A program made the position numbers and the translations under genes. Shown here one piece after another: positions 4,147 through 13,053 of a stretch of DNA of 64,000 bases. This DNA comes from an uncultured bacterium (GTDB lineage Bacteria; Zixibacteria; MSB-5A5; CAIYYT01): the NCBI GenBank assembly GCA_963726455.1, contig CAVSCK010000003.1, forward strand, positions 640,001 through 704,000, in the 5' to 3' direction. Every line of letters starts with the position of its first letter. Positions within the stretch are counted from its first letter, which is position 1. The notes beneath the pieces are model-generated. The model saw nothing but the letters and a program-made list of their open reading frames with translations. It searched no databases and was not told where the DNA came from.

Positions 4147-5317
4147 GTGGAACACATCTACCTCGACTATAACGCAACCACCCCGATTCATCCGGAAGTT
4201 GCCGATGCCATGACTCCCTTATCTGCGGCAGCACTTCGGCAATCCCTCCAGTTCGCATTGGTTTGGTGTGCAAACGCGCAAAGCGGTCGAAAATGCGCGC
4301 GCCCAGGTAGCGGATATGCTGAAGTGCGAACTCGACGAAGTGGTTTTCACTTCGGGTGGCAGCGAGTCGAACAACTTCGCCATCAAGGGTTATGCACTTA
4401 AGCATCGCGACAAAGGTAATCACATCATTACCTCGCAGGTCGAACATCCGGCGGTGCTGGAGGTCTGCGAGTATTTCGAGACTCTCGGTTTTGAGATCAC
4501 TTATCTGCCGGTTGATGAATTCGGCCTGGTTCATGTTGACGATGTCGCCAGGCGCAATTCGCCCCGACACGATTCTGATCTCGATCATGCAGGCCAACAA
4601 TGAAGTCGGCACGATTCAGCCGATTGCGGAAATCGCGGACTTGGCGCACAAACGTGGAATTGTGATGCACACCGACGCCGCTCAGGCCGTCGGCAAGATT
4701 CCCGTGAACGTACCCGCGACTTGCGCGTGGACATGATCAGCATCGCCGGACACAAACTGTATGCTCCCAAAGGCATCGGTGCACTCTATATCAAACGCGG
4801 CATTCAACTGCAAAAAATCATCCACGGCGCATCACACGAAAGAAACCTGCGCGCCGGTACTGAGAATGTCCTCGAAATCGTGGGGCTTGGCAAGGCCTGC
4901 GAGATCGTCGCACGTGATCTCGAACTCAATCATCGCCACACGAAAACGATGCGCGATCTGCTGGAAAGTAGGTTGAAAGAACTCCTCCCCTTCTGCCGCA
5001 CAAATGGTCATCCCGAAAAGCGGCTGCCAAATACACTGTCGATTTCTTTTCCCGGCATTGAGGCCAACACGATCATCTCAGAACTGGAGCAGGTCGCCTG
5101 CTCGCCGGGTGCTGCATGTCATTCCGACAAAGTCATCATGTCCCATGTTCTGAAAGCTATGGGCATACCGGTCGAATTTGCGATGGGCACGATTCGTTTT
5201 TCCACCGGCGCCATGACCACGGAAGCCGAAATCGAGCAGGCGGCGGATGCGATTGTATCAACCGTCAGTCGTCTTTCCCCGACTGCCAAGAAGATTGTCC
5301 GTCAAGACCGACGCTGA
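4147..5317 (+). CDS. NifS/IscS-like cysteine desulfurase or selenocysteine lyase; split by apparent frameshifts; probably the N-terminal part of a fusion with SelD
   Basis: [49 protein letters not shown] and SPGAACHS lie in successive frames. Confidence 0.88.
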
Positions 5318-6359
5318 CGAAGACAGTCCGCTTGACCAAATACACTCATGGACTCGGCTGCGCGTGCAAACTTCGACCTCAGGAGCTGGAGAAAGATTCT
5401 GGCGTCTCTGCCGCGTTCGACTGATGCGAATGTTCTGGTCGGCGCCGAATCCTCCGATGATGCCGCCGTCTATCGAATAAGCGACACGCTCGCCATTGTG
5501 CAAACCGTCGATTTCTTTACGCCGATCGTTGACGATCCCTATCACTTCGGTGCTATCGCTGCCGCCAATTCCTTGAGTGACATCTATGCGATGGGTGGCA
5601 AGCCGCTCTTTGCGTTGAGTATCGTCGGCTTTCCGTCCAATCGCTTGCCGATGAGCGTGCTCCAGCGAATCCTCGCAAGGCGCTGCCGACAAGGCAAAGG
5701 AGGCCGGTATCAGCATCATCGGCGGCCACACCGTCGATGACACCGAACCCAAATACGGACTGGCTGTGTCCGGCGTGATCGATCCCAAACGAATTCTGAC
5801 CAACAACAAGGCACGTGTCGGCGACAAGCTGATTCTGACCAAACCGATCGGAACCGGAATCATAAGTACCGCCATCAAACGTCAGATGGCTGATACCACA
5901 CTTTCCAAGACTGTGATCGAAATTATGAGCCGTTTGAACAACACCGCCGCGGAAACGATGCTGAACTACGATGTTTCCGCAGTGACCGACGTCACCGGAT
6001 TCGGGCTGCTGGGACACCTCAAGGAGATGTCTGTCGGCAGTAAGGTCGATGCGCAAATTGACTCACAGCAGGTACCCCTGATACCGGGTGTTGCTAATTT
6101 TGCCTCATCGGGCGCAATCCCCGGTGGTACCGAAAACAACCTCGATTACGTTAGCCCGTACGTTCAATGGCGTGAAGATATTCCCAAAGTCACGCGACTT
6201 ATCCTCTGCGATGCTCAGACCTCAGGCGGATTACTAATTGCTGTGAATCCCCGCGATGCCGAAAAGCTTCTTGCGGAACTGAAGGCAAAAGGCATAGCCG
6301 AGGCGGCCATCATCGGCGAGATTACGCAGACAGGCACAGGTAAAATCGAGGTCGTCTAG
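5318..6359 (+). CDS. selD: Selenide, water dikinase (selenophosphate synthetase), Cys form, frameshifted
   Basis: [45 protein letters not shown] and DAQTSGGLL. Confidence 0.92.
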
Positions 6360-6465: not shown

Positions 6466-8390
6466 CTAGGGACAACTTGCACAGGGAGCCGGACCGCCCG
6501 AGAAGATGTAGCTGATGAGATAGACGACGTCCGAAATATCAACTCCGCCGGCACAATTCGCATCGGCTCTCGCGATCGGATTCGGCGCCGGGCCGCCCGA
6601 GAAGATGTACGCAATTAGAAACACACCGTCCGAAATATCGACCGCACCGGAAGCATCGGCATCACCACAGGTGTAAGGCGGCGGCGGCGCATCGGTAATC
6701 TTCATACTGCAACTCATTGTATCGACCTTGGACGGCACGCTGGCATCAGCGGTGGCGATTGTGAAGTAATAGGTCGCTTTGTAAGTCGGCGTGCCGGTGA
6801 TTGTTCCTTCGGTGCCGCCGGTAAAGGTCAGACCGTACGGCAGATCGCCGCCGACAAACGACCATTCATACGGCGCTGCGCCCCCGACTACCTGTAACTG
6901 GTAGGAATAGGGAACTTCTTTGTACCCATCGGGAATCTGATATGAGATGATATGCACTTCACCGTCGCAGTGGTCACCAATGCCGTTGTCATCTTCGTCT
7001 TCCTGGAGTGGGTTATAAACGTACGGACAGTTGTCGCATGCATCTCCCAGACTGTCATTGTCGCTATCCGATCTGCGAGGCATTACTCGCAAGCAGGCAG
7101 TTATCAACCGTATTCGGGATGCCGTCGCCGTCGAAATCATTCGTGTTGGCAATCGTCATCAACCATGCCACTGACGCCTTTACCATCCGCGTCATATACT
7201 CGAAATTCATGTGGGTCGTGCTGTCGCGTGGGCCGTGATAGTAAGTTGAAAAAGTGTACTCTGCCAGGAAAATGCCGTCATATCCCAACTGCGTGAACGG
7301 GAAATGATCGGAACCACTTGACCATCCCGCCAGATGACCGGTTATGCCGACCAGCGGCTGCGCAATGTTGATCCATGTTTGCGCGTAGCGGCTGCTGCTG
7401 CCATAGTAAAGATTGGAGTGCGCATTGTTGGACTCATGCGCGATCATATCCATATTGAACACCACCAGAATCTTGTCATGCCGGCCAGCGGCTTCCTGGG
7501 CAAAATGCGTCGAGCCGTTCAATCCCGTCTCTTCGGCATCGAATGCGACAAACAACACGGTCACGTTCAGAGTGGAATCCTTGAGCACGCGCGCCATTTC
7601 CAACACTCCCGCCGTTCCGGAGCCGTTATCGTCCGCGGCCGGACTGGCTGACACGCCGTCATAGTGACCGCAGACTACTACATAGACATCCGGGAGATAC
7701 TGCTCCGACTTTTTTCGCGACGACATTGAAGCCCGGCTTGGTCGTGCTCCCGACCTGAAAATCGAACGCATCCAGCGTCACGTCGTCATAACCGAAGCGA
7801 TGGAAACGCTGTACGATCGTGTCACGCGCGGCGTAAATGTTCGGCGTTCCGGCAGCGCGGCGATAAAACGCCTGCAATTGCTGCACGTAGTGCGTCAATG
7901 AATCCTGGTTGACCTGCTCCATGACGCCCTTCAGTCTTGCCAAATCGATACTGATCTTCTCCTGAACCACTGACGGCCGGTACGTGATAGCAATCGGCAA
8001 TCGCGGCACCGGCATAACATCCGTGGCTTCGGTGCCCTGTGCCAACACACCCGGGTCGACTTTGAACAGCCGCAATTGTTCCTCAGAAAACACGAGCTGG
8101 TATCGACTCACATTGAATTGATCCATTCGATGATCCAGGGCGAGTTCGTCACGACGGACATTCGCCGCCAGCAATTGCGTCGCCAGCCCGGACTGATTGA
8201 GCTTGGTAACCGCTGTCGGATCGGCTAGTACCAAATACCCGTCGCGCACCGCCACAATCGGCTCGGCGCCGACACTCACCAGCTTTTCGGCGTCAATTTG
8301 GCTTTGAACAGTAACCTTATAAAGATCGGCGGCCCCCGCAGAGGATACAAAGAGAAGAAAGAACGACAGAATCAGTAGAAATTGTCTCAT
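6466..8390 (-). CDS. Secreted M28-family metallopeptidase with TSP3-like Ca-binding repeats, Ig-like domain and C-terminal dockerin-like domain (frameshifted)
   Basis: Signal peptide; GHYD, ADDNGSG, AEETGL, NMDMI, SDHFPF and YHGPRD; DxDxDG..DNC repeats; tail [29 protein letters not shown] present twice. Confidence 0.85.
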
Positions 8391-8568
8391 ATGTTGATGC
8401 TCCAACAAAGGATGACGTGCTTTGGGCAAGTACCATTTTTCACAATATATCATAAAATTCTCGGTCTGTAAAGCTCATATATTGGCACGGTATGCCTTTT
8501 CGGATGTCGTACTGATTAGGTCGGCATTTGCGATCAGAAACTGACAGCTCTTGAAAGCGAGATGACTC

Positions 8569-8910
8569 ATGAACTCGTTCGATTGGACAAACGGATTCCC
8601 GGCGGCCATCACGGTCTGCGATAACGAAGGCATCATTCTCTCGATGAATGCCCGGTCTATTGAGACGTTCGCGAAGGATGGTGGCGCCGCGCTCATTGGA
8701 AAGAGTATTCTCGATTGTCACCCCGAACCGTCGCGCACTAAACTTCGCGAGCTCCTCGCCGCCGAGCGCAGCAACTGCTACACGATTGAGAAGAACGGCG
8801 TACACAAATTGATCTACCAGTCGCCCTGGTATCAGGATGGCAAGTACGCCGGCCTCGTCGAAATCTCGATGGAGATTCCGCACCCTATGCCGCATTTCGT
8901 CCGCACCTGA
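8569..8910 (+). CDS. Small stand-alone PAS-domain protein
   Basis: ITVCDNEGIILSMN...LIGKSILDCHP...YTIEKNG...GLVEIS. Confidence 0.8.
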   Translation: MNSFDWTNGFPAAITVCDNEGIILSMNARSIETFAKDGGAALIGKSILDCHPEPSRTKLRELLAAERSNCYTIEKNGVHKLIYQSPWYQDGKYAGLVEISMEIPHPMPHFVRT

Positions 8911-8951: not shown

Positions 8952-9026
8952 CGTAACTTGCGCAGAAATCTATCCGCTTCTTCAGCGGCGGATGGTTGTA
9001 CTCCCAGAACTCGATAAACGCCGACG
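8952..9026. repeat. Direct repeat copy 1 (75 bp): displaced 3' end of the M48 peptidase gene
   Basis: Matches 11655-11729 at 73 of 75 positions; the minus strand reads SAFIEFWEYNHPPLKKRIDFCASY then VPAPN-stop. Confidence 0.93.
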
Positions 9027-9068
9027 ACATTTTGTTGGAATGGTTGCTCGTCTTCACAAAGAAAGGGC

Positions 9069-9097
9069 TTGACAAACAACGTACGGCATTATATGAT
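9069..9097 (+). promoter_or_regulatory. Sigma70 promoter of the radical SAM cassette
   Basis: TTGACA-N17-TATGAT, then GGAGG at 9111-9115 and ATG at 9125. Confidence 0.75.
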
Positions 9098-9124
9098 TTA
9101 TGGGGCTAGGGGAGGCAGAGTGGT

Positions 9125-10516
9125 ATGACGACAAATCGGTGGGCTGTTTCTTCCTTCAATTTCATTGTTCCCGTTTCTGACGAGAAGCACGTGGCGTACA
9201 ACGCGTTTTCGGGTGCACTCGCGGAGTTGGACGCCAAACAACTCGCCACTTTCAAAGACATATTGCAGGACCCAGAGGAGTATCTTCAACGTGCCGACGC
9301 GGACACATCCCTCTTTGCATCGATCGTCACTGCAGGATTCATCCATGATGCCGCAGTAAATGAACTCGATCTTATCAAGACAAAATCCGCACTCAATAGA
9401 TTCAATACCGAGCAATTTCATCTCACGATAATGCCGACTTTGGCCTGCAATTTCGAATGCCCATATTGTTACGAGAAGCAGGAACCAATCCTGATGTCAG
9501 ACAGCACTGAAGACGCCCTGGTGAGTTGGGTACAAAAGCGTGCAGAAGTTGCCCGAATCTTCACAGTCGCTTGGTTCGGTGGAGAACCATTATTGGCCTT
9601 AGACCGCATAGAGAGCACATCAAACCGCTTTCGAGCAATTTGTGAACGGCGAGGCATAAACTATTGTGCTAGCTTAACAACTAATGGCTACTTGCTCAAT
9701 GATCACGTGTGTGATAGACTCGCAGAACTTGGTATAGTGGGCGTACAAGTGACTATAGATGGCCCCAGGCATATTCACGATGTTCGCCGATATCTTCGCG
9801 GACGGGGTCCCACATTTGATCGCATTGTCAAAAATGTAGAGCACTTAGTCATCACACGACCTGAAATCGCCGTCTGGATACGAGTCAATTGCGATGAGAG
9901 CAACATTGACGAAGTCGGCCAAATCTTTGACCAGCTACCGTCACTGCTGGTGCAGCGAACAGATATCTATTTTGCCTTTGTATATTCCTGCCAGAGCTTT
10001 CTGGGCAACGCGGAGGATGTTGACGCAGCATCAACATGTGATCCTCATGGGAGCGCTGACTTGGAATTTAGGAAGAAACTTCGCGCCCTCCAATTGGAGA
10101 GTGTGAGAAGGAGGCGGGCCGTGAATCCATCGCCCGTCACGAAATTTGTGTTCAGGCCTCGCTGGGCCTATTGCGAAGCCGACTATGCGAACAAGTTCGT
10201 GGTTGATCCCAGGGGAGACTTGCATAAGTGCACTGTCTCATTCAGCCCGGAGTTGCGTGTTGGTAGGCTACTTCCGAACGGCGACGCGTTGTTTGACTTG
10301 CCCAAGCTTTCGATTTGGCTATCAAAGGACGCCTTCTCCTCTCCAAAATGCACCTCCTGCAAAGTACTTCCACTTTGCCTCGGTGGATGCCGCTCCGCGA
10401 CCTTACAGAATATTTCGGAAGGTAGATGCGCGACCTTACTCACGCCGGAGGAAGTTGAAAGGAGTCTGGGCTCCCTTTACGAACTTGTGAAATGCAGTTC
10501 CGGGGGGTCTGTATAG
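9125..10516 (+). CDS. Radical SAM/SPASM-domain enzyme, probable peptide maturase
   Basis: CNFECPYC, WFGGEPLL, TTNGYLL and VTIDG..HD; SPASM cysteines YCEA..DPRGDLHKC and CTSCKVLPLCLGGC..C; ~90-aa N-terminal extension. Confidence 0.93.
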   Translation: MTTNRWAVSSFNFIVPVSDEKHVAYNAFSGALAELDAKQLATFKDILQDPEEYLQRADADTSLFASIVTAGFIHDAAVNELDLIKTKSALNRFNTEQFHLTIMPTLACNFECPYCYEKQEPILMSDSTEDALVSWVQKRAEVARIFTVAWFGGEPLLALDRIESTSNRFRAICERRGINYCASLTTNGYLLNDHVCDRLAELGIVGVQVTIDGPRHIHDVRRYLRGRGPTFDRIVKNVEHLVITRPEIAVWIRVNCDESNIDEVGQIFDQLPSLLVQRTDIYFAFVYSCQSFLGNAEDVDAASTCDPHGSADLEFRKKLRALQLESVRRRRAVNPSPVTKFVFRPRWAYCEADYANKFVVDPRGDLHKCTVSFSPELRVGRLLPNGDALFDLPKLSIWLSKDAFSSPKCTSCKVLPLCLGGCRSATLQNISEGRCATLLTPEEVERSLGSLYELVKCSSGGSV

Positions 10517-10627
10517 CAGCAACCGCCCCCTTGGAACCAATTCGGCAGAAGCAATGCAAGACTATGTGGGTGGAACAAGATGTTCCGCCTGATTCTAGAC
10601 TCCTAAACACCGAGGGAGGTGAAACAC

Positions 10628-10741
10628 ATGAATCTCATGTTGCGTCCTCAATCATTGGAAGTGTGCGAACTCGTTGAGTTGCAGCCCATCATGGCACTCA
10701 ATATCTTGCTCTGTGGGCTGTGCTGCGTTAGAGTGACTTAG
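10628..10741 (+). CDS. Putative RiPP precursor, 37 aa: MNLMLRPQSLEVCELVELQPIMALNILLCGLCCVRVT
   Basis: Strong RBS GGGAGGTGA with ATG 5 nt after it; ATG to TAG; 4 Cys; directly downstream of the rSAM gene; below the ORF-track size cutoff. Confidence 0.8.
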   Translation: MNLMLRPQSLEVCELVELQPIMALNILLCGLCCVRVT

Positions 10742-10773
10742 CGATTCGGCACACACTCCGAAGCCGAGTGACA

Positions 10774-10799
10774 GCGGCGCAGCTGTGGGGCTGCGCCGC
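10774..10799 (+). terminator. Stem-loop after the precursor gene (mRNA-stabilising or attenuating)
   Basis: Perfect 10-bp stem gcggcgcagc/gctgcgccgc with no long U-tract. Confidence 0.55.
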
Positions 10800-10902
10800 G
10801 TACTAAAGAGAGAGATCAGGTGATGTCATCGCGAGCCCGTAGTACAGTCGCAAATAGGTCTTGCCTCAGTTGCTCTAATCACGGGACATTGGGGAATTGT
10901 CA

Positions 10903-11550
10903 GTGAAAACTCAGGTTGTCATAATCGGAACTATCCATCTCAGCGCATCCCTCTTTCCTCATTACGGTTCTTGGGTCCGGCAATCCGTAAAGAGATTGCA
11001 CCCCGACATAGTCTGTGTGGAACTCTCCCCTGAGCAGCTTGCAGGCGAAACAAGCATGGATTCGAAACCTGAATACTCTTCAGCCATTTTGCCGTCTGCG
11101 CGTGAAATAGGCGCAATCTTGGTTCCCATACAGCCTGTTACATCAGTAGGAGAGGAGTTTGAGCGGGTTAAGCTTGAATTTCTGGAGTACATAGCGTCCG
11201 ACAATCTTGAGCGGGAGCGGTGGGAAGTGTTCTGCCAATTAGAATCTGCCTGGCTGACGGGACTTACGGTTTGGCTGCAAGACGTACCGTCTATAATTGA
11301 TTTGCAGGACATCCGGCTAGACACGCTACTCTTTGAGCCGTGGTACTCCACGTTGTCAAGATTCTTTCCGGGCTTCGAGGCATTCTGGCGACCATGGAAT
11401 CAAGAATTACTTGGAGCTACTATCCAGGCCGTGCGAAGTCATCCTGGAAGACTCATACTCATAACAGTGGGAATGGCACACAGGTATTGGTTGCGCAAAG
11501 GTCTGCGAGCTCAGGAAGAGGTCGAGTTGCGTGATCTAAGGGAGTTTTGA
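10903..11550 (+). CDS. TraB/GumN/Tiki-like (EreA/ChaN superfamily) putative metallohydrolase
   Basis: VVIIGTIH, PDIVCVE and C-terminal LITVGMAH motifs; GTG start at 10903 (TTG at 10897 is an alternative). Confidence 0.6.
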   Translation: MKTQVVIIGTIHLSASLFPHYGSWVRQSVKRLHPDIVCVELSPEQLAGETSMDSKPEYSSAILPSAREIGAILVPIQPVTSVGEEFERVKLEFLEYIASDNLERERWEVFCQLESAWLTGLTVWLQDVPSIIDLQDIRLDTLLFEPWYSTLSRFFPGFEAFWRPWNQELLGATIQAVRSHPGRLILITVGMAHRYWLRKGLRAQEEVELRDLREF

Positions 11551-11631
11551 GCCAGCACAATCGCTTCTTGATTTACTCAGTGGAGGCGGCTTAGAAATGT
11601 GTCGGATTCTCTCGAAACAACACTCTCCCCA

Positions 11632-13053
11632 TCAAGGTTTGCTATTGATAGTCTCGTAACTTGCGCAGAAATCTATCCGCTTCTTCAGCGGCGGATGGCT
11701 GTACTCCCAGAACTCGACAAACGCCGACGGTTGCGGATTGGACAGATTCTCATTCGCCATCTTGACGAACGCCGAAATTCCGCTCGCCGGATCGTGTGTT
11801 AGGTCGAGCGCAAATCTGTCGGCATCATGTTCGATCTTGCGGGAAAAGCCGTTTATCACCGGATCCAGAAGGAACAGCATCAATCCCAACATGAGCATCA
11901 ACAACGGCAGACTGGCGATGTCCCCGACCGCTGAAAATCCGAAACTCGCTCCGAATTTCGCCATTACCCATCCGATCGTCTTGAAGACAATGAACAACAA
12001 AATCAGAAATATGACACTGAACAGCGCGATGCCGATCCAGATATGGTTGAGAACGTAGTGCCCCATCTCATGGGCCATCACAAACGCAACCTCATCAGGG
12101 GTCAACTTCTTGATCGTTGTGTCCCATAACACAATTCGCTTGGAGCCAAACAGCCCCGTCACATAGGCATTTATCTTCTGCGTCTGCGAGCTCATATCGA
12201 CTTGATAGACACGGCCGCCCGAAATTCCGGCTTTTTCCGCCATGCCGAGAATTCTGGCTGACAGCACCTGATCCTGCAGAGGTTCGAACTTGTTGAACAT
12301 CGGTTCGATGAACACCGGCAGAATTACCATGACGATTATCATGATCGGAATCGCGGCCACACCGATCCAGAGCCACCAATCACGCGCGCGCCTGCGAATG
12401 CCCCAGTAGGCGAACGTCACCAGCACCGTCAATGAAAGCGTCATTAGGTAGCTCGATTTGATCGTGTCGGCCAGCCAGTTCCCGAATGTTTGCGTCGACA
12501 GATTGAAATGGTGTTCGATCACGAAATCGCGATAGTACGACAGCGGCAGCCCCACCACTTGCAAAATCAACGTCAGTATGACGATGAAGAACACTTGCAC
12601 AGCAAGACCGCGATGCCGCCCGGCAAGCATCCCCACGACGCCCCAGGCGACTGCTATGAAAATCCCCCCCGCCCCTACCGGCTGCTTGTCGGTCGCGCTC
12701 ATGAATGCCAACAGCAACGCAATCAGCAGCGCCAGACCTCCTCCGAGCCACATCGGCGCCGATTGTTGGTGCAATTTGTCCGTCAGCTTCTCGGAGACGC
12801 TCCGTATTCTGCGCGAAAAACCAAACCAGAGAATACCCGCCAACACCAGCAGACTAAACGCAGTCGAGAAGAAATACCAACCGTCCCTGAAGTTCGAAAA
12901 TATAATTGCCTGCTCGACCTTGTCGGGTGTCAGCACCGACGTAATCTCGCCTGGAACTGTGCTCAGGTCGACGCTCTTGTCAATCCCGATCGTGCTGATG
13001 CCAAAGATCAGAAACAGCAGCATCAAAAGTACTGGCCAAATAACCTTCTTCAT
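11632..13053 (-). CDS. M48 (Ste24/HtpX-like) membrane zinc metallopeptidase
   Basis: NAYVTG, AHEMGH, EHDADRFA and SHPPL..RI; multiple TM helices. Confidence 0.92.
   Translation of the reverse strand: MKKVIWPVLLMLLFLIFGISTIGIDKSVDLSTVPGEITSVLTPDKVEQAIIFSNFRDGWYFFSTAFSLLVLAGILWFGFSRRIRSVSEKLTDKLHQQSAPMWLGGGLALLIALLLAFMSATDKQPVGAGGIFIAVAWGVVGMLAGRHRGLAVQVFFIVILTLILQVVGLPLSYYRDFVIEHHFNLSTQTFGNWLADTIKSSYLMTLSLTVLVTFAYWGIRRRARDWWLWIGVAAIPIMIIVMVILPVFIEPMFNKFEPLQDQVLSARILGMAEKAGISGGRVYQVDMSSQTQKINAYVTGLFGSKRIVLWDTTIKKLTPDEVAFVMAHEMGHYVLNHIWIGIALFSVIFLILLFIVFKTIGWVMAKFGASFGFSAVGDIASLPLLMLMLGLMLFLLDPVINGFSRKIEHDADRFALDLTHDPASGISAFVKMANENLSNPQPSAFVEFWEYSHPPLKKRIDFCASYETINSKP
11655..11729. repeat. Direct repeat copy 2 (75 bp), inside the 3' end of the M48 peptidase gene
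   Basis: 73/75 identical to 8952-9026. Confidence 0.93.

Follow-up and report, generated by a model that had tools for sequence, protein, structure and literature searches.

In the CteB/CteA and PapB ranthipeptide systems, CteA carries a Cys-Thr bridge and PapA a Cys-x3-Asp linkage, the Cys being joined to a residue three to five positions towards the C-terminus. The Clo7bot family (TIGR04333/TIGR04334) is curated but apparently uncharacterised in the literature searched, where the name itself was not encountered. The enzyme CrpC of Methanococcus voltae, a member of family TIGR04463, combines a recognition element (RRE) for peptides that are synthesised ribosomally and modified after translation (RiPPs) with radical S-adenosylmethionine (rSAM) and SPASM domains and three 4Fe-4S clusters, and the cross-links that it introduces at Cys within short motifs of CrpA are ranthionines (non-alpha thioethers) (PMC13692751). 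Here we describe a 37-codon open reading frame (ORF) at positions 10628–10741, on the forward strand of a 64,000-nucleotide stretch of DNA from an uncultured bacterium of the Zixibacteria (contig CAVSCK010000003.1, positions 640,001 to 704,000; hereafter, the window). The ORF very probably encodes a RiPP precursor, the substrate of an rSAM/SPASM maturase whose gene lies 111 nt upstream on the same strand. An ORF under the usual annotation limits would in this way become the probable substrate of an otherwise orphan radical SAM enzyme. Zixibacteria were not mentioned together with radical SAM and RiPP in the literature searched, in which a single paper names TIGR04463.

The probable precursor gene and its maturase

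The ORF opens with an ATG at 10628 and closes with a TAG at 10739–10741, and GAGGGAGGTGAAACAC occupies 10612–10627 directly before the start codon. Its translation is MNLMLRPQSLEVCELVELQPIMALNILLCGLCCVRVT (37 amino acids). Residues 1–7 form an MNLMLRP motif (LMLRP at 3–7), residues 8–20 are acidic with Glu at 11, 14 and 17 and a Cys at 13, and the hydrophobic core carries C29, C32, C33 and T37. Re-reading the sequence returned the ORF and its Cys and Glu positions exactly as given in the original prediction, which had been made from the DNA letters. A Shine-Dalgarno (SD) element, GGAGG, lies at 10615–10619 on the forward strand with an 8-nt spacer to the ATG. An alternative GTG start at 10619 would give a 40-residue form, but it falls within the SD and would shift the conserved Pro from position 7 to position 10, so that the ATG is the better start. 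The peptide had been called hidden, and it is indeed absent from the ORF track supplied for that prediction; the same 37-residue ORF nonetheless stands as a called gene (P0063) in a large protein collection, and it was therefore hidden from that track only. The extended form of the SD, GGAGGTGA, is also seen upstream of the peptides of relatives; it was considered as a special mark of these genes and rejected, with 117 sites in the genome against about 111 expected.

The upstream gene (9125–10516, forward strand) encodes a protein of 463 amino acids with an N-terminal extension at an RRE-like position. It matches the Pfam Radical_SAM model PF04055 with 62.8 bits (cut-off 29.5) and the SPASM domain model TIGR04085 with 46.4 bits (cut-off 27), and judged by these domain matches it is a radical SAM enzyme with a SPASM domain. 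The CxxxCxxC motif corresponds to C108, C112 and C115, and the SPASM Cys residues are C350, C369, C409, C412, C418, C422 and C435. Across an alignment of 20 relatives, C108, C112, C115, C409 and C412 are invariant, and C350, C369, C418, C422 and C435 nearly so. The highest NCBIfam scores were obtained for TIGR04463 (268.8 bits), the Clo7bot maturase TIGR04334 (246.1) and CefB NF038107 (186), followed by the geopeptide maturase (159.7), FlmE/OhkG (150), the PapB family (104.5) and the SCIFF maturase (71.8). The five best-scoring families all act on Cys-rich peptides. By its profile scores the enzyme is related to TIGR04334, TIGR04463 and NF038107 while belonging to none of the curated equivalogs. 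The closest solved structure is CteB (5wgg/5why), with an E-value of 1.1e-9 over the rSAM core.

Close orthologues of the maturase are scarce. The genome from which the window derives holds two paralogues (33% and 29% identity), and no close orthologue was found among 60 relatives, where the best match reaches 35% identity; counting the window's genome, matches at E 1e-40 occur in 24 of 61, for the most part to the paralogous families. Scans of metagenome and genome collections gave, among the matches listed, no maturase closer than 35%. A promoter-like site (TTGACA, 17 nt, TATGAT; 11 of 12 matches) lies at 9069–9097 on the forward strand, 28 nt before the maturase start, and is to be read as a consensus match only, since 3.2 sites of this kind are expected in the region and 6 occur.

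Peptides beside orthologous maturases

A search of 285 genomes of the phylum, including the window's own, with the orthologous clade defined at E 1e-80, identified an orthologous maturase in 9 of the 284 other genomes (300–384 bits, 35–38% identity). In all nine loci, one to six SD-preceded Cys-rich ORFs of 33–52 amino acids lie directly downstream on the strand of the enzyme, the same arrangement of short ORF and adjoining RRE-rSAM-SPASM enzyme that is found in the window. A public record (L115) shares its peptides with the G169 locus and was counted once. When the 18 peptides of these loci are aligned, Pro7 and a hydrophobic residue 4 are present in 18 of 18 and a hydrophobic residue 3 in 16. 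The cores fall into types, with GCGC/CxC repeats in five genomes (G207, G167, G055, G219 and G206) and a CTDTNC... sequence in two (G214 and G205). The remaining two, G175 with two peptides and G169 with six, have a CC type of core that ends in [GW/GF/GC]CC-x-x-[LI]-T, the six G169 peptides all bearing a GCCCxxLT ending.

It is the CC type that the window peptide resembles. One of the G175 peptides, MEFMTSPFVVTQSTSLPMPELESWCGLQGWCCIKITP, is likewise 37 residues long and has CGL...CC[IV][KR][IV]T in common with it, and the peptides of the window, G175 and G169 share both termini, M-x-[FL]-[LMI]-x-x-P ... CC-x-x-[LIV]-T. A MAFFT alignment of the window peptide with the eight CC peptides is almost gapless, with M1, P7, G30, C32, C33 and T37 invariant. 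The CC family evolves as coding sequence: paralogues in L115 differ at first, second and third codon positions by 9, 4 and 22 or by 13, 5 and 23 substitutions, with dN (nonsynonymous) 0.19–0.28 and dS (synonymous) about 2. The original prediction had divided the peptide into leader and core and had staked its case on conservation of the ORF and its Cys pattern beside rSAM homologues. That comparison has now been made and does not refute it: Pro7 is universal in the nine orthologous loci, the terminal CC-x-x-[LIV]-T is kept in the two closest cassettes, and a conserved leader with a Cys-containing core is found at the level of motifs, although not of significant profile scores.

The N-terminal motif extends well beyond the phylum. 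Using the pattern ^M.[LIVMFYW][LIVMFYW]..P with a preceding SD and at least one Cys, 190 loci (of 194; four overlapping loci from the window's own genome were skipped) comprising 962,734 bases yielded 121 motif ORFs in 67 loci. When the 159 public loci were each turned so that the enzyme reads forward, 39 of them showed 86 such ORFs, 84 on the forward strand and 2 on the reverse; the background of the window's genome, 27 ORFs with motif and SD in 3.64 Mb of double-stranded DNA, predicts about three per strand. Clostridial peptides of the MKFIKKP / MKYIVKP type in L118, L119 and L039 pass TIGR04333 (35.8–56.1 bits against a cut-off of 31), whereas that model matches neither the window peptide (E up to 10) nor its CC-type relatives (E up to 1). 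We therefore regard the hydrophobic-x-x-Pro start as the shared mark of a large precursor superfamily of which one branch has been curated. The proposal that this start is a recognition sequence for the maturase gains from the same counts, being the one feature common to the small ORFs beside this clade of enzymes. As a rule (M-x-hydrophobic-hydrophobic-x-x-P with Pro7, a strong SD and the same strand), it finds missing precursors for the whole clade in many phyla.

Tandem arrays of four to seven Pro-7 peptides with varied Cys-rich cores were observed in unrelated phyla (L133, L134, L041, L118–L120, L039 and others), with starts such as MKWIEKPE..., MTFLVEP... and MKFIKEPE...; most match no curated precursor model. 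The window's genome itself contains two more rSAM/SPASM clusters, on contig C4 at about 938.3–940.6 kb (L003) and on contig C1 at about 35.4–38.7 kb (L002, L004). Besides small SD-preceded precursors of its own, each cluster has a second rSAM gene. Two MIYLIDPQ... peptides are encoded upstream of the enzyme in one cluster, and in the other MRFIEQP/MKFIEQP... peptides lie between the enzymes and after them. Peptides of both kinds are met again in many genomes of the family, for example as MKFIE[ST]P...KPCPCYKKLFLILPPLQD and MIYLIDP...PLYGVP.

A number of results nevertheless weigh against the window ORF as a member of this set. Its identity to the eight CC peptides is 16–30%, and the upstream Cys is spaced differently, with C-x2-CC in the window peptide and C-x5-CC(C) in its relatives. 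Hidden Markov models (HMMs) built from the eight CC-type or from all 18 clade peptides gave it 1.5–1.6 bits, ranking it 5236 and 5714 of 139,307 small ORFs of the genome, and with an HMM of the six L115 peptides it was absent from 1911 rows at E ≤1000. Curated precursor models in NCBIfam and Pfam do not match it. A word-indexed search of 5.8 billion protein clusters, with the 40-residue GTG form as query, returned only the peptide itself, and a profile search of 1.84 billion representatives returned seven proteins, of which two are longer and unrelated; the others are three L115 peptides, the window peptide itself and one CC peptide not seen before (P0067). As for the enzyme, it scores under every equivalog cut-off (TIGR04334, 600 bits; TIGR04463, 525; NF038107, 600), and the locus comparison covers orthologues of 35–38% identity, the gene neighbourhoods of the closest maturase proteins (P0002–P0006, 43–57% identical) lying outside it. 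Furthermore, the clusters of G175 and G169 follow the order sigma-54 activator, maturase, peptides, TraB-like protein, ABC ATPase and ABC-2 permease, of which the window holds the middle three genes only, without activator, ATPase or permease; no ABC-2 orthologue was found in its genome at E 1e-8. With so few kin returned by the searches, the window peptide is best regarded as a divergent singleton, and since no profile alignment is significant, its kinship with the relatives rests on its ends, length, position and gene order.

The ORF might accordingly be suspected to be a chance open frame in an intergenic or 3′ untranslated region, the true substrate being encoded elsewhere or the enzyme being an orphan. 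The relatives' HMMs cannot tell it from thousands of random small ORFs, protein searches show no close homologue, and GGAGGTGA is not enriched, 16 such sites preceding ORFs of 20–60 amino acids. We consider this explanation highly improbable in view of a census of the whole 3.64-Mb genome. Among 84,475 combinations of ORF and start of 25–60 amino acids, 477 have the N-terminal motif, 27 also have an SD and four of those add two or more Cys in their C-terminal half. The window ORF is one of three in this last group that adjoin the three rSAM/SPASM maturase loci, and the fourth has a weak SD only. The two parts of the CC-type pattern (an M.[FL][LMI]..P start, and CC..[LIV]T at most four residues from the end) occur singly in 101 and 14 ORFs, for a joint expectation of 0.017, and the one ORF observed with both is that of the window. 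These chance figures are indicative, as the patterns were written after the window peptide was known and Val was added to the [LI] class of the relatives. Independently of them, the position, strand, length and ends of the ORF equal those of the peptides in orthologous cassettes, and the 2.7 kb containing the maturase and the peptide gene hold no other Cys-containing candidate.

The TraB/Tiki-like neighbour and the inserted cassette

The third gene of the group (10897–11550, forward strand) encodes a 217-residue protein resembling TraB, PrgY and Tiki, with an EreA/ChaN-like fold; it is a candidate peptidase in which no membrane segment was detected. No Pfam or NCBIfam model matches it at E 0.01. 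Against PF01963 (TraB_PrgY_gumN) the window protein scores 15.1 bits (E 0.021) and two relatives score 26.6 (6.6e-6) and 21.2 (2.9e-4), all three under the gathering cut-off of 26.8 bits. A tblastn search of all the loci compared found matches in G175 and in the CC-type G169/L115 loci only, with 29% identity over 212–216 residues (E 1e-29 to 1e-31 for G175, 5e-27 for G169/L115). In both G175 and G169 the homologue sits immediately after the peptides, and it is absent from two 12-kb loci of other core types (G207 and G205). This third-gene comparison covers four of the nine orthologous loci, the flanks of the remaining five reaching 1.5 kb only. A language-model atlas links the protein to DUF5694/TraB clusters (0.87–0.94), and two of the four database homologues carry the JGI name 'pheromone shutdown protein TraB'.

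Seven aligned sequences share G11, H14, C40, E42, S56-K-P-E59, W167-N168, G192 and H195, an invariant set that amounts to two G-x-x-H motifs and a Glu. The model of the fold has a predicted local distance difference test (pLDDT) score of 91.6 with the seven-sequence alignment and of 46 from the single sequence. Structural comparison of the model gave the Tetrahymena respiratory supercomplex subunit 8bqs_DQ as a match (Z 11.3, 194 residues aligned, root-mean-square deviation (rmsd) 4.3), along with ChaN (8.1, 153 aligned, rmsd 4.3) and EreC (7.8, 134 aligned, rmsd 3.1), all three Z values being middling; the BcR135/136 proteins and HopBA1 were further matches. Foldseek placed EreC first (E 2.2e-3), and a search of PDB sequences with the 217-residue profile gave nothing meaningful. 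We take ChaN, EreC, Tiki and TraB to belong to one EreA/ChaN/Tiki/TraB superfamily of (metallo)hydrolases, of which paired G-x-x-H motifs with a Glu are presumably the hallmark. By its modelled fold and these motifs, the 217-residue protein would be a member.

The maturase, peptide and TraB-like genes lie together between two direct repeats of 75 nt, at 8952–9026 and 11655–11729. The repeats are 97% identical at a spacing of 2703, with sharply bounded homology, and each reproduces the final codons of an M48 peptidase gene. The right copy is within the 3′ end of the intact M48 gene (11632–13053, reverse strand), while the left copy is the original M48 3′ end, now a fragment beside a small PAS protein gene (8569–8910, forward strand), and marks the left edge of the cassette (9027–11654). 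The M48 gene was found at 71% identity in two genomes of the same genus, and in one of them (G003, locus L203) the PAS gene is its immediate neighbour, some 40 bp away; an orthologous maturase was not found in the same-genus genomes. From the bounded repeats and this direct M48-PAS junction, we conclude that the cassette, 2.7 kb long, was inserted into the M48 gene at its 3′ end. As integrative elements do, it carries a replacement 3′ end, and it looks like the product of site-specific integration at the end of a gene; no integrase is present with it.

The corresponding clusters in G175 (L205, 3059–10578) and G169 (L206, 3262–11978) are fuller, and their sigma-54 activators bear TPR or GAF sensor domains. 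Those activators suggested a sigma-54 promoter before the window peptide, which was rejected because the best sites match 8 of 12 positions, as do 4160 sites across the genome; nor was a sigma-54 site found before the peptides of the two fuller clusters. As a separate observation, the ABC-2 permease is 70% identical between G175 and G169, a conservation far above that of either the maturase or the TraB-like protein. Because the exporter genes are missing from the window, its cassette could be a remnant, and export of a product would be left unexplained. On such an account the peptide gene is real, but it belongs to an inactive or decaying piece of a larger cluster that was inserted here and yields no mature exported product. 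The single peptide copy, against two in G175 and six in G169, is in keeping with decay, as are the recent-looking insertion with its nearly identical repeats and the presence of frameshift-split genes elsewhere in the window. All three cassette genes are intact, however; no cluster-binding Cys of the maturase and no invariant residue of the TraB-like protein has been lost, and a promoter-like site precedes the maturase, and for these reasons we think the remnant explanation quite unlikely.

Downstream of the peptide gene, 33 nt after its stop codon, a G+C-rich hairpin with a perfect stem of 10–11 bp and no T tract occupies 10774–10799 on the forward strand. The 89-nt stretch that contains it folds with −37.9 kcal/mol (z −3.28), which one of 200 shuffles equalled. 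It is the only structure found in place of a canonical terminator, none having been found after the peptide gene. Hairpins are often seen after RiPP precursor genes, and this one may stabilise or partly terminate the precursor transcript.

Further to the left in the window, a SelD-like gene related to AIR synthase is split into pieces at 5348–5740 and 5766–6359 (forward strand) that correspond to the AIRS N- and C-terminal domains of Pfam in different frames, with a possible third piece upstream at 5116–5424; either a pseudogene or an indel error in the assembly would account for this. At 6466–8453 on the reverse strand, three overlapping ORFs in different frames resemble a single long surface peptidase gene with two frameshifts. 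They encode 264 residues with no family match, 235 residues with Peptidase_M28 and TSP_3 domains, and 228 residues with TSP_3, He_PIG and dockerin domains.

Proposed maturation and comparison with known systems

We propose that the precursor, once translated, would be bound by the N-terminal recognition domain of the maturase through a short leader made up of residues 1–7 (M-x-hydrophobic-hydrophobic-x-x-P) and the acidic stretch that follows. The maturase would then cross-link the core residues C29, C32 and C33 in the motif CC-x-x-[LIV]-T, most likely by thioether bridges from Cys to a carbon of a nearby residue. The CC-x-x-V-T of the window presumably resembles the spacing of Cys and acceptor in CteA and PapA, and on that analogy Thr37, four and five residues past the Cys pair, is a candidate acceptor. 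A prediction of the complex of maturase and peptide, which had been suggested as a check, lends the leader binding weak support. It scored 0.39 (runs of 0.39, 0.35 and 0.45) against 0.02 for the best control, the runs sharing at least 47% of their contacts; pLDDT values for the partner are about 45 (at least 43). In calibration 116 of 157 solved complexes passed the mark, as did 2 of 215 mismatched pairs; those that passed with scores of 0.60 or less comprise only 18 of the 157 solved complexes but both of the mismatches.

The nature of the modification and the duty of the third gene admit another account, in which the peptide is the substrate but acquires C-C or ether cross-links or undergoes epimerisation instead of forming thioethers, or in which the TraB-like protein is a factor for self-protection or for shutting down a signal. 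The failure to reach any equivalog cut-off leaves room for this, as does a match to CteB at no better than E 1.1e-9, and rSAM/SPASM maturases perform many chemistries (PMC13692751). A shutdown role would fit the JGI name given to the homologues, and the hydrophobic core is presumably like that of pheromone peptides. On the other side, the conserved feature of the core is a Cys pair or triplet, the five top maturase families act on Cys-rich peptides, and thioethers are what CrpC, the single member of the best-scoring family to be characterised, produces (PMC13692751). We judge this alternative unlikely, though of real weight, and continue to favour thioether bridging with removal of the leader.

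For the latter step, the soluble TraB/Tiki-like protein, a putative metallopeptidase, would most likely trim the leader, or else control or limit the cell's own peptide in some other manner. Parallels come from Tiki, which takes residues off the N-terminus of Wnt, and from PrgY, which damps a pheromone that is a hydrophobic peptide, PrgY/TraB being a self-protection or signal-shutdown factor for the enterococcal pheromones. A bridged hydrophobic peptide of about 15–17 residues would fit a role in signalling or in acting on membranes, as the original prediction proposed. In a 2023 review of RiPP leader proteases, a search for the terms TraB, Tiki and PrgY found none of them (PMC10885120); for certain graspetide loci, Tiki/TraB proteins have been put forward as candidate leader peptidases (PMC8939145).

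A more far-reaching possibility, which we put forward tentatively and with some doubt, is that the cassette represents an undescribed RiPP subfamily. It would combine an rSAM/SPASM enzyme, a peptide whose N-terminal tag of 7–10 residues (M-x-F/L-M/I/L-x-x-P) is joined to a core of the CC-x-x-[LIV]-T type, and a metallopeptidase of the cytoplasm, Tiki/TraB-like, that removes the leader. The product would be a small hydrophobic signal peptide bridged by thioethers, and the minimal 2.7-kb unit would be mobile, integrating at the 3′ end of a housekeeping gene. The signal role in this reading is drawn by analogy with TraB/PrgY pheromone systems. Should it hold, a Tiki-type N-terminal peptidase would be a class of protease not yet counted among RiPP leader peptidases. 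Peptides of the CC-x-x-[LIV]-T type with a TraB/Tiki-like partner are rare, with five family members among the 1.84 billion representatives, and the family is uncurated. The three genes are few and small enough for direct expression, by which both the cross-link chemistry and the role of a Tiki-type leader protease could be approached.

The locus can finally be set against the systems to which it comes closest. SCIFF (CteB/CteA) and the PapB ranthipeptide system have the same enzyme architecture as the window maturase, which scores 104.5 bits against the PapB-family model and 71.8 against that of the SCIFF maturase, far under the cut-offs of 340 and 425; the window peptide matches no SCIFF or PapA-like model. 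The family of CrpC is the best-scoring NCBIfam family of the window maturase, but CrpA is a large archaeal repeat protein with an N-terminal region of 47 residues whereas the window encodes a peptide of 37, and a TraB-like partner is not mentioned in the portion available of the account of that system (PMC13692751). Compared with TraB/PrgY, the 217-residue protein is shorter than PrgY, with no membrane anchor detected. Clo7bot, too, has Cys-rich peptides of about 35–55 residues, often in tandem, beside an RRE-rSAM-SPASM enzyme; Clo7bot peptides begin at their extreme N-terminus with M-x-hydrophobic-hydrophobic-x-x-P as well, and their maturase is the second-best family of the window enzyme. 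The two differ in that the window peptide has a hydrophobic core closed by CC-x-x-[LIV]-T in place of the many spaced Cys of Clo7bot peptides, and in that the window peptide lies downstream of the enzyme rather than upstream and is followed by a TraB-like gene. The predicted system is thus placed among the rSAM/SPASM-modified Cys-rich peptides of a Clo7bot-like superfamily, with a rare and uncurated type of core and an unusual TraB/Tiki-like partner, carried on a small inserted cassette.

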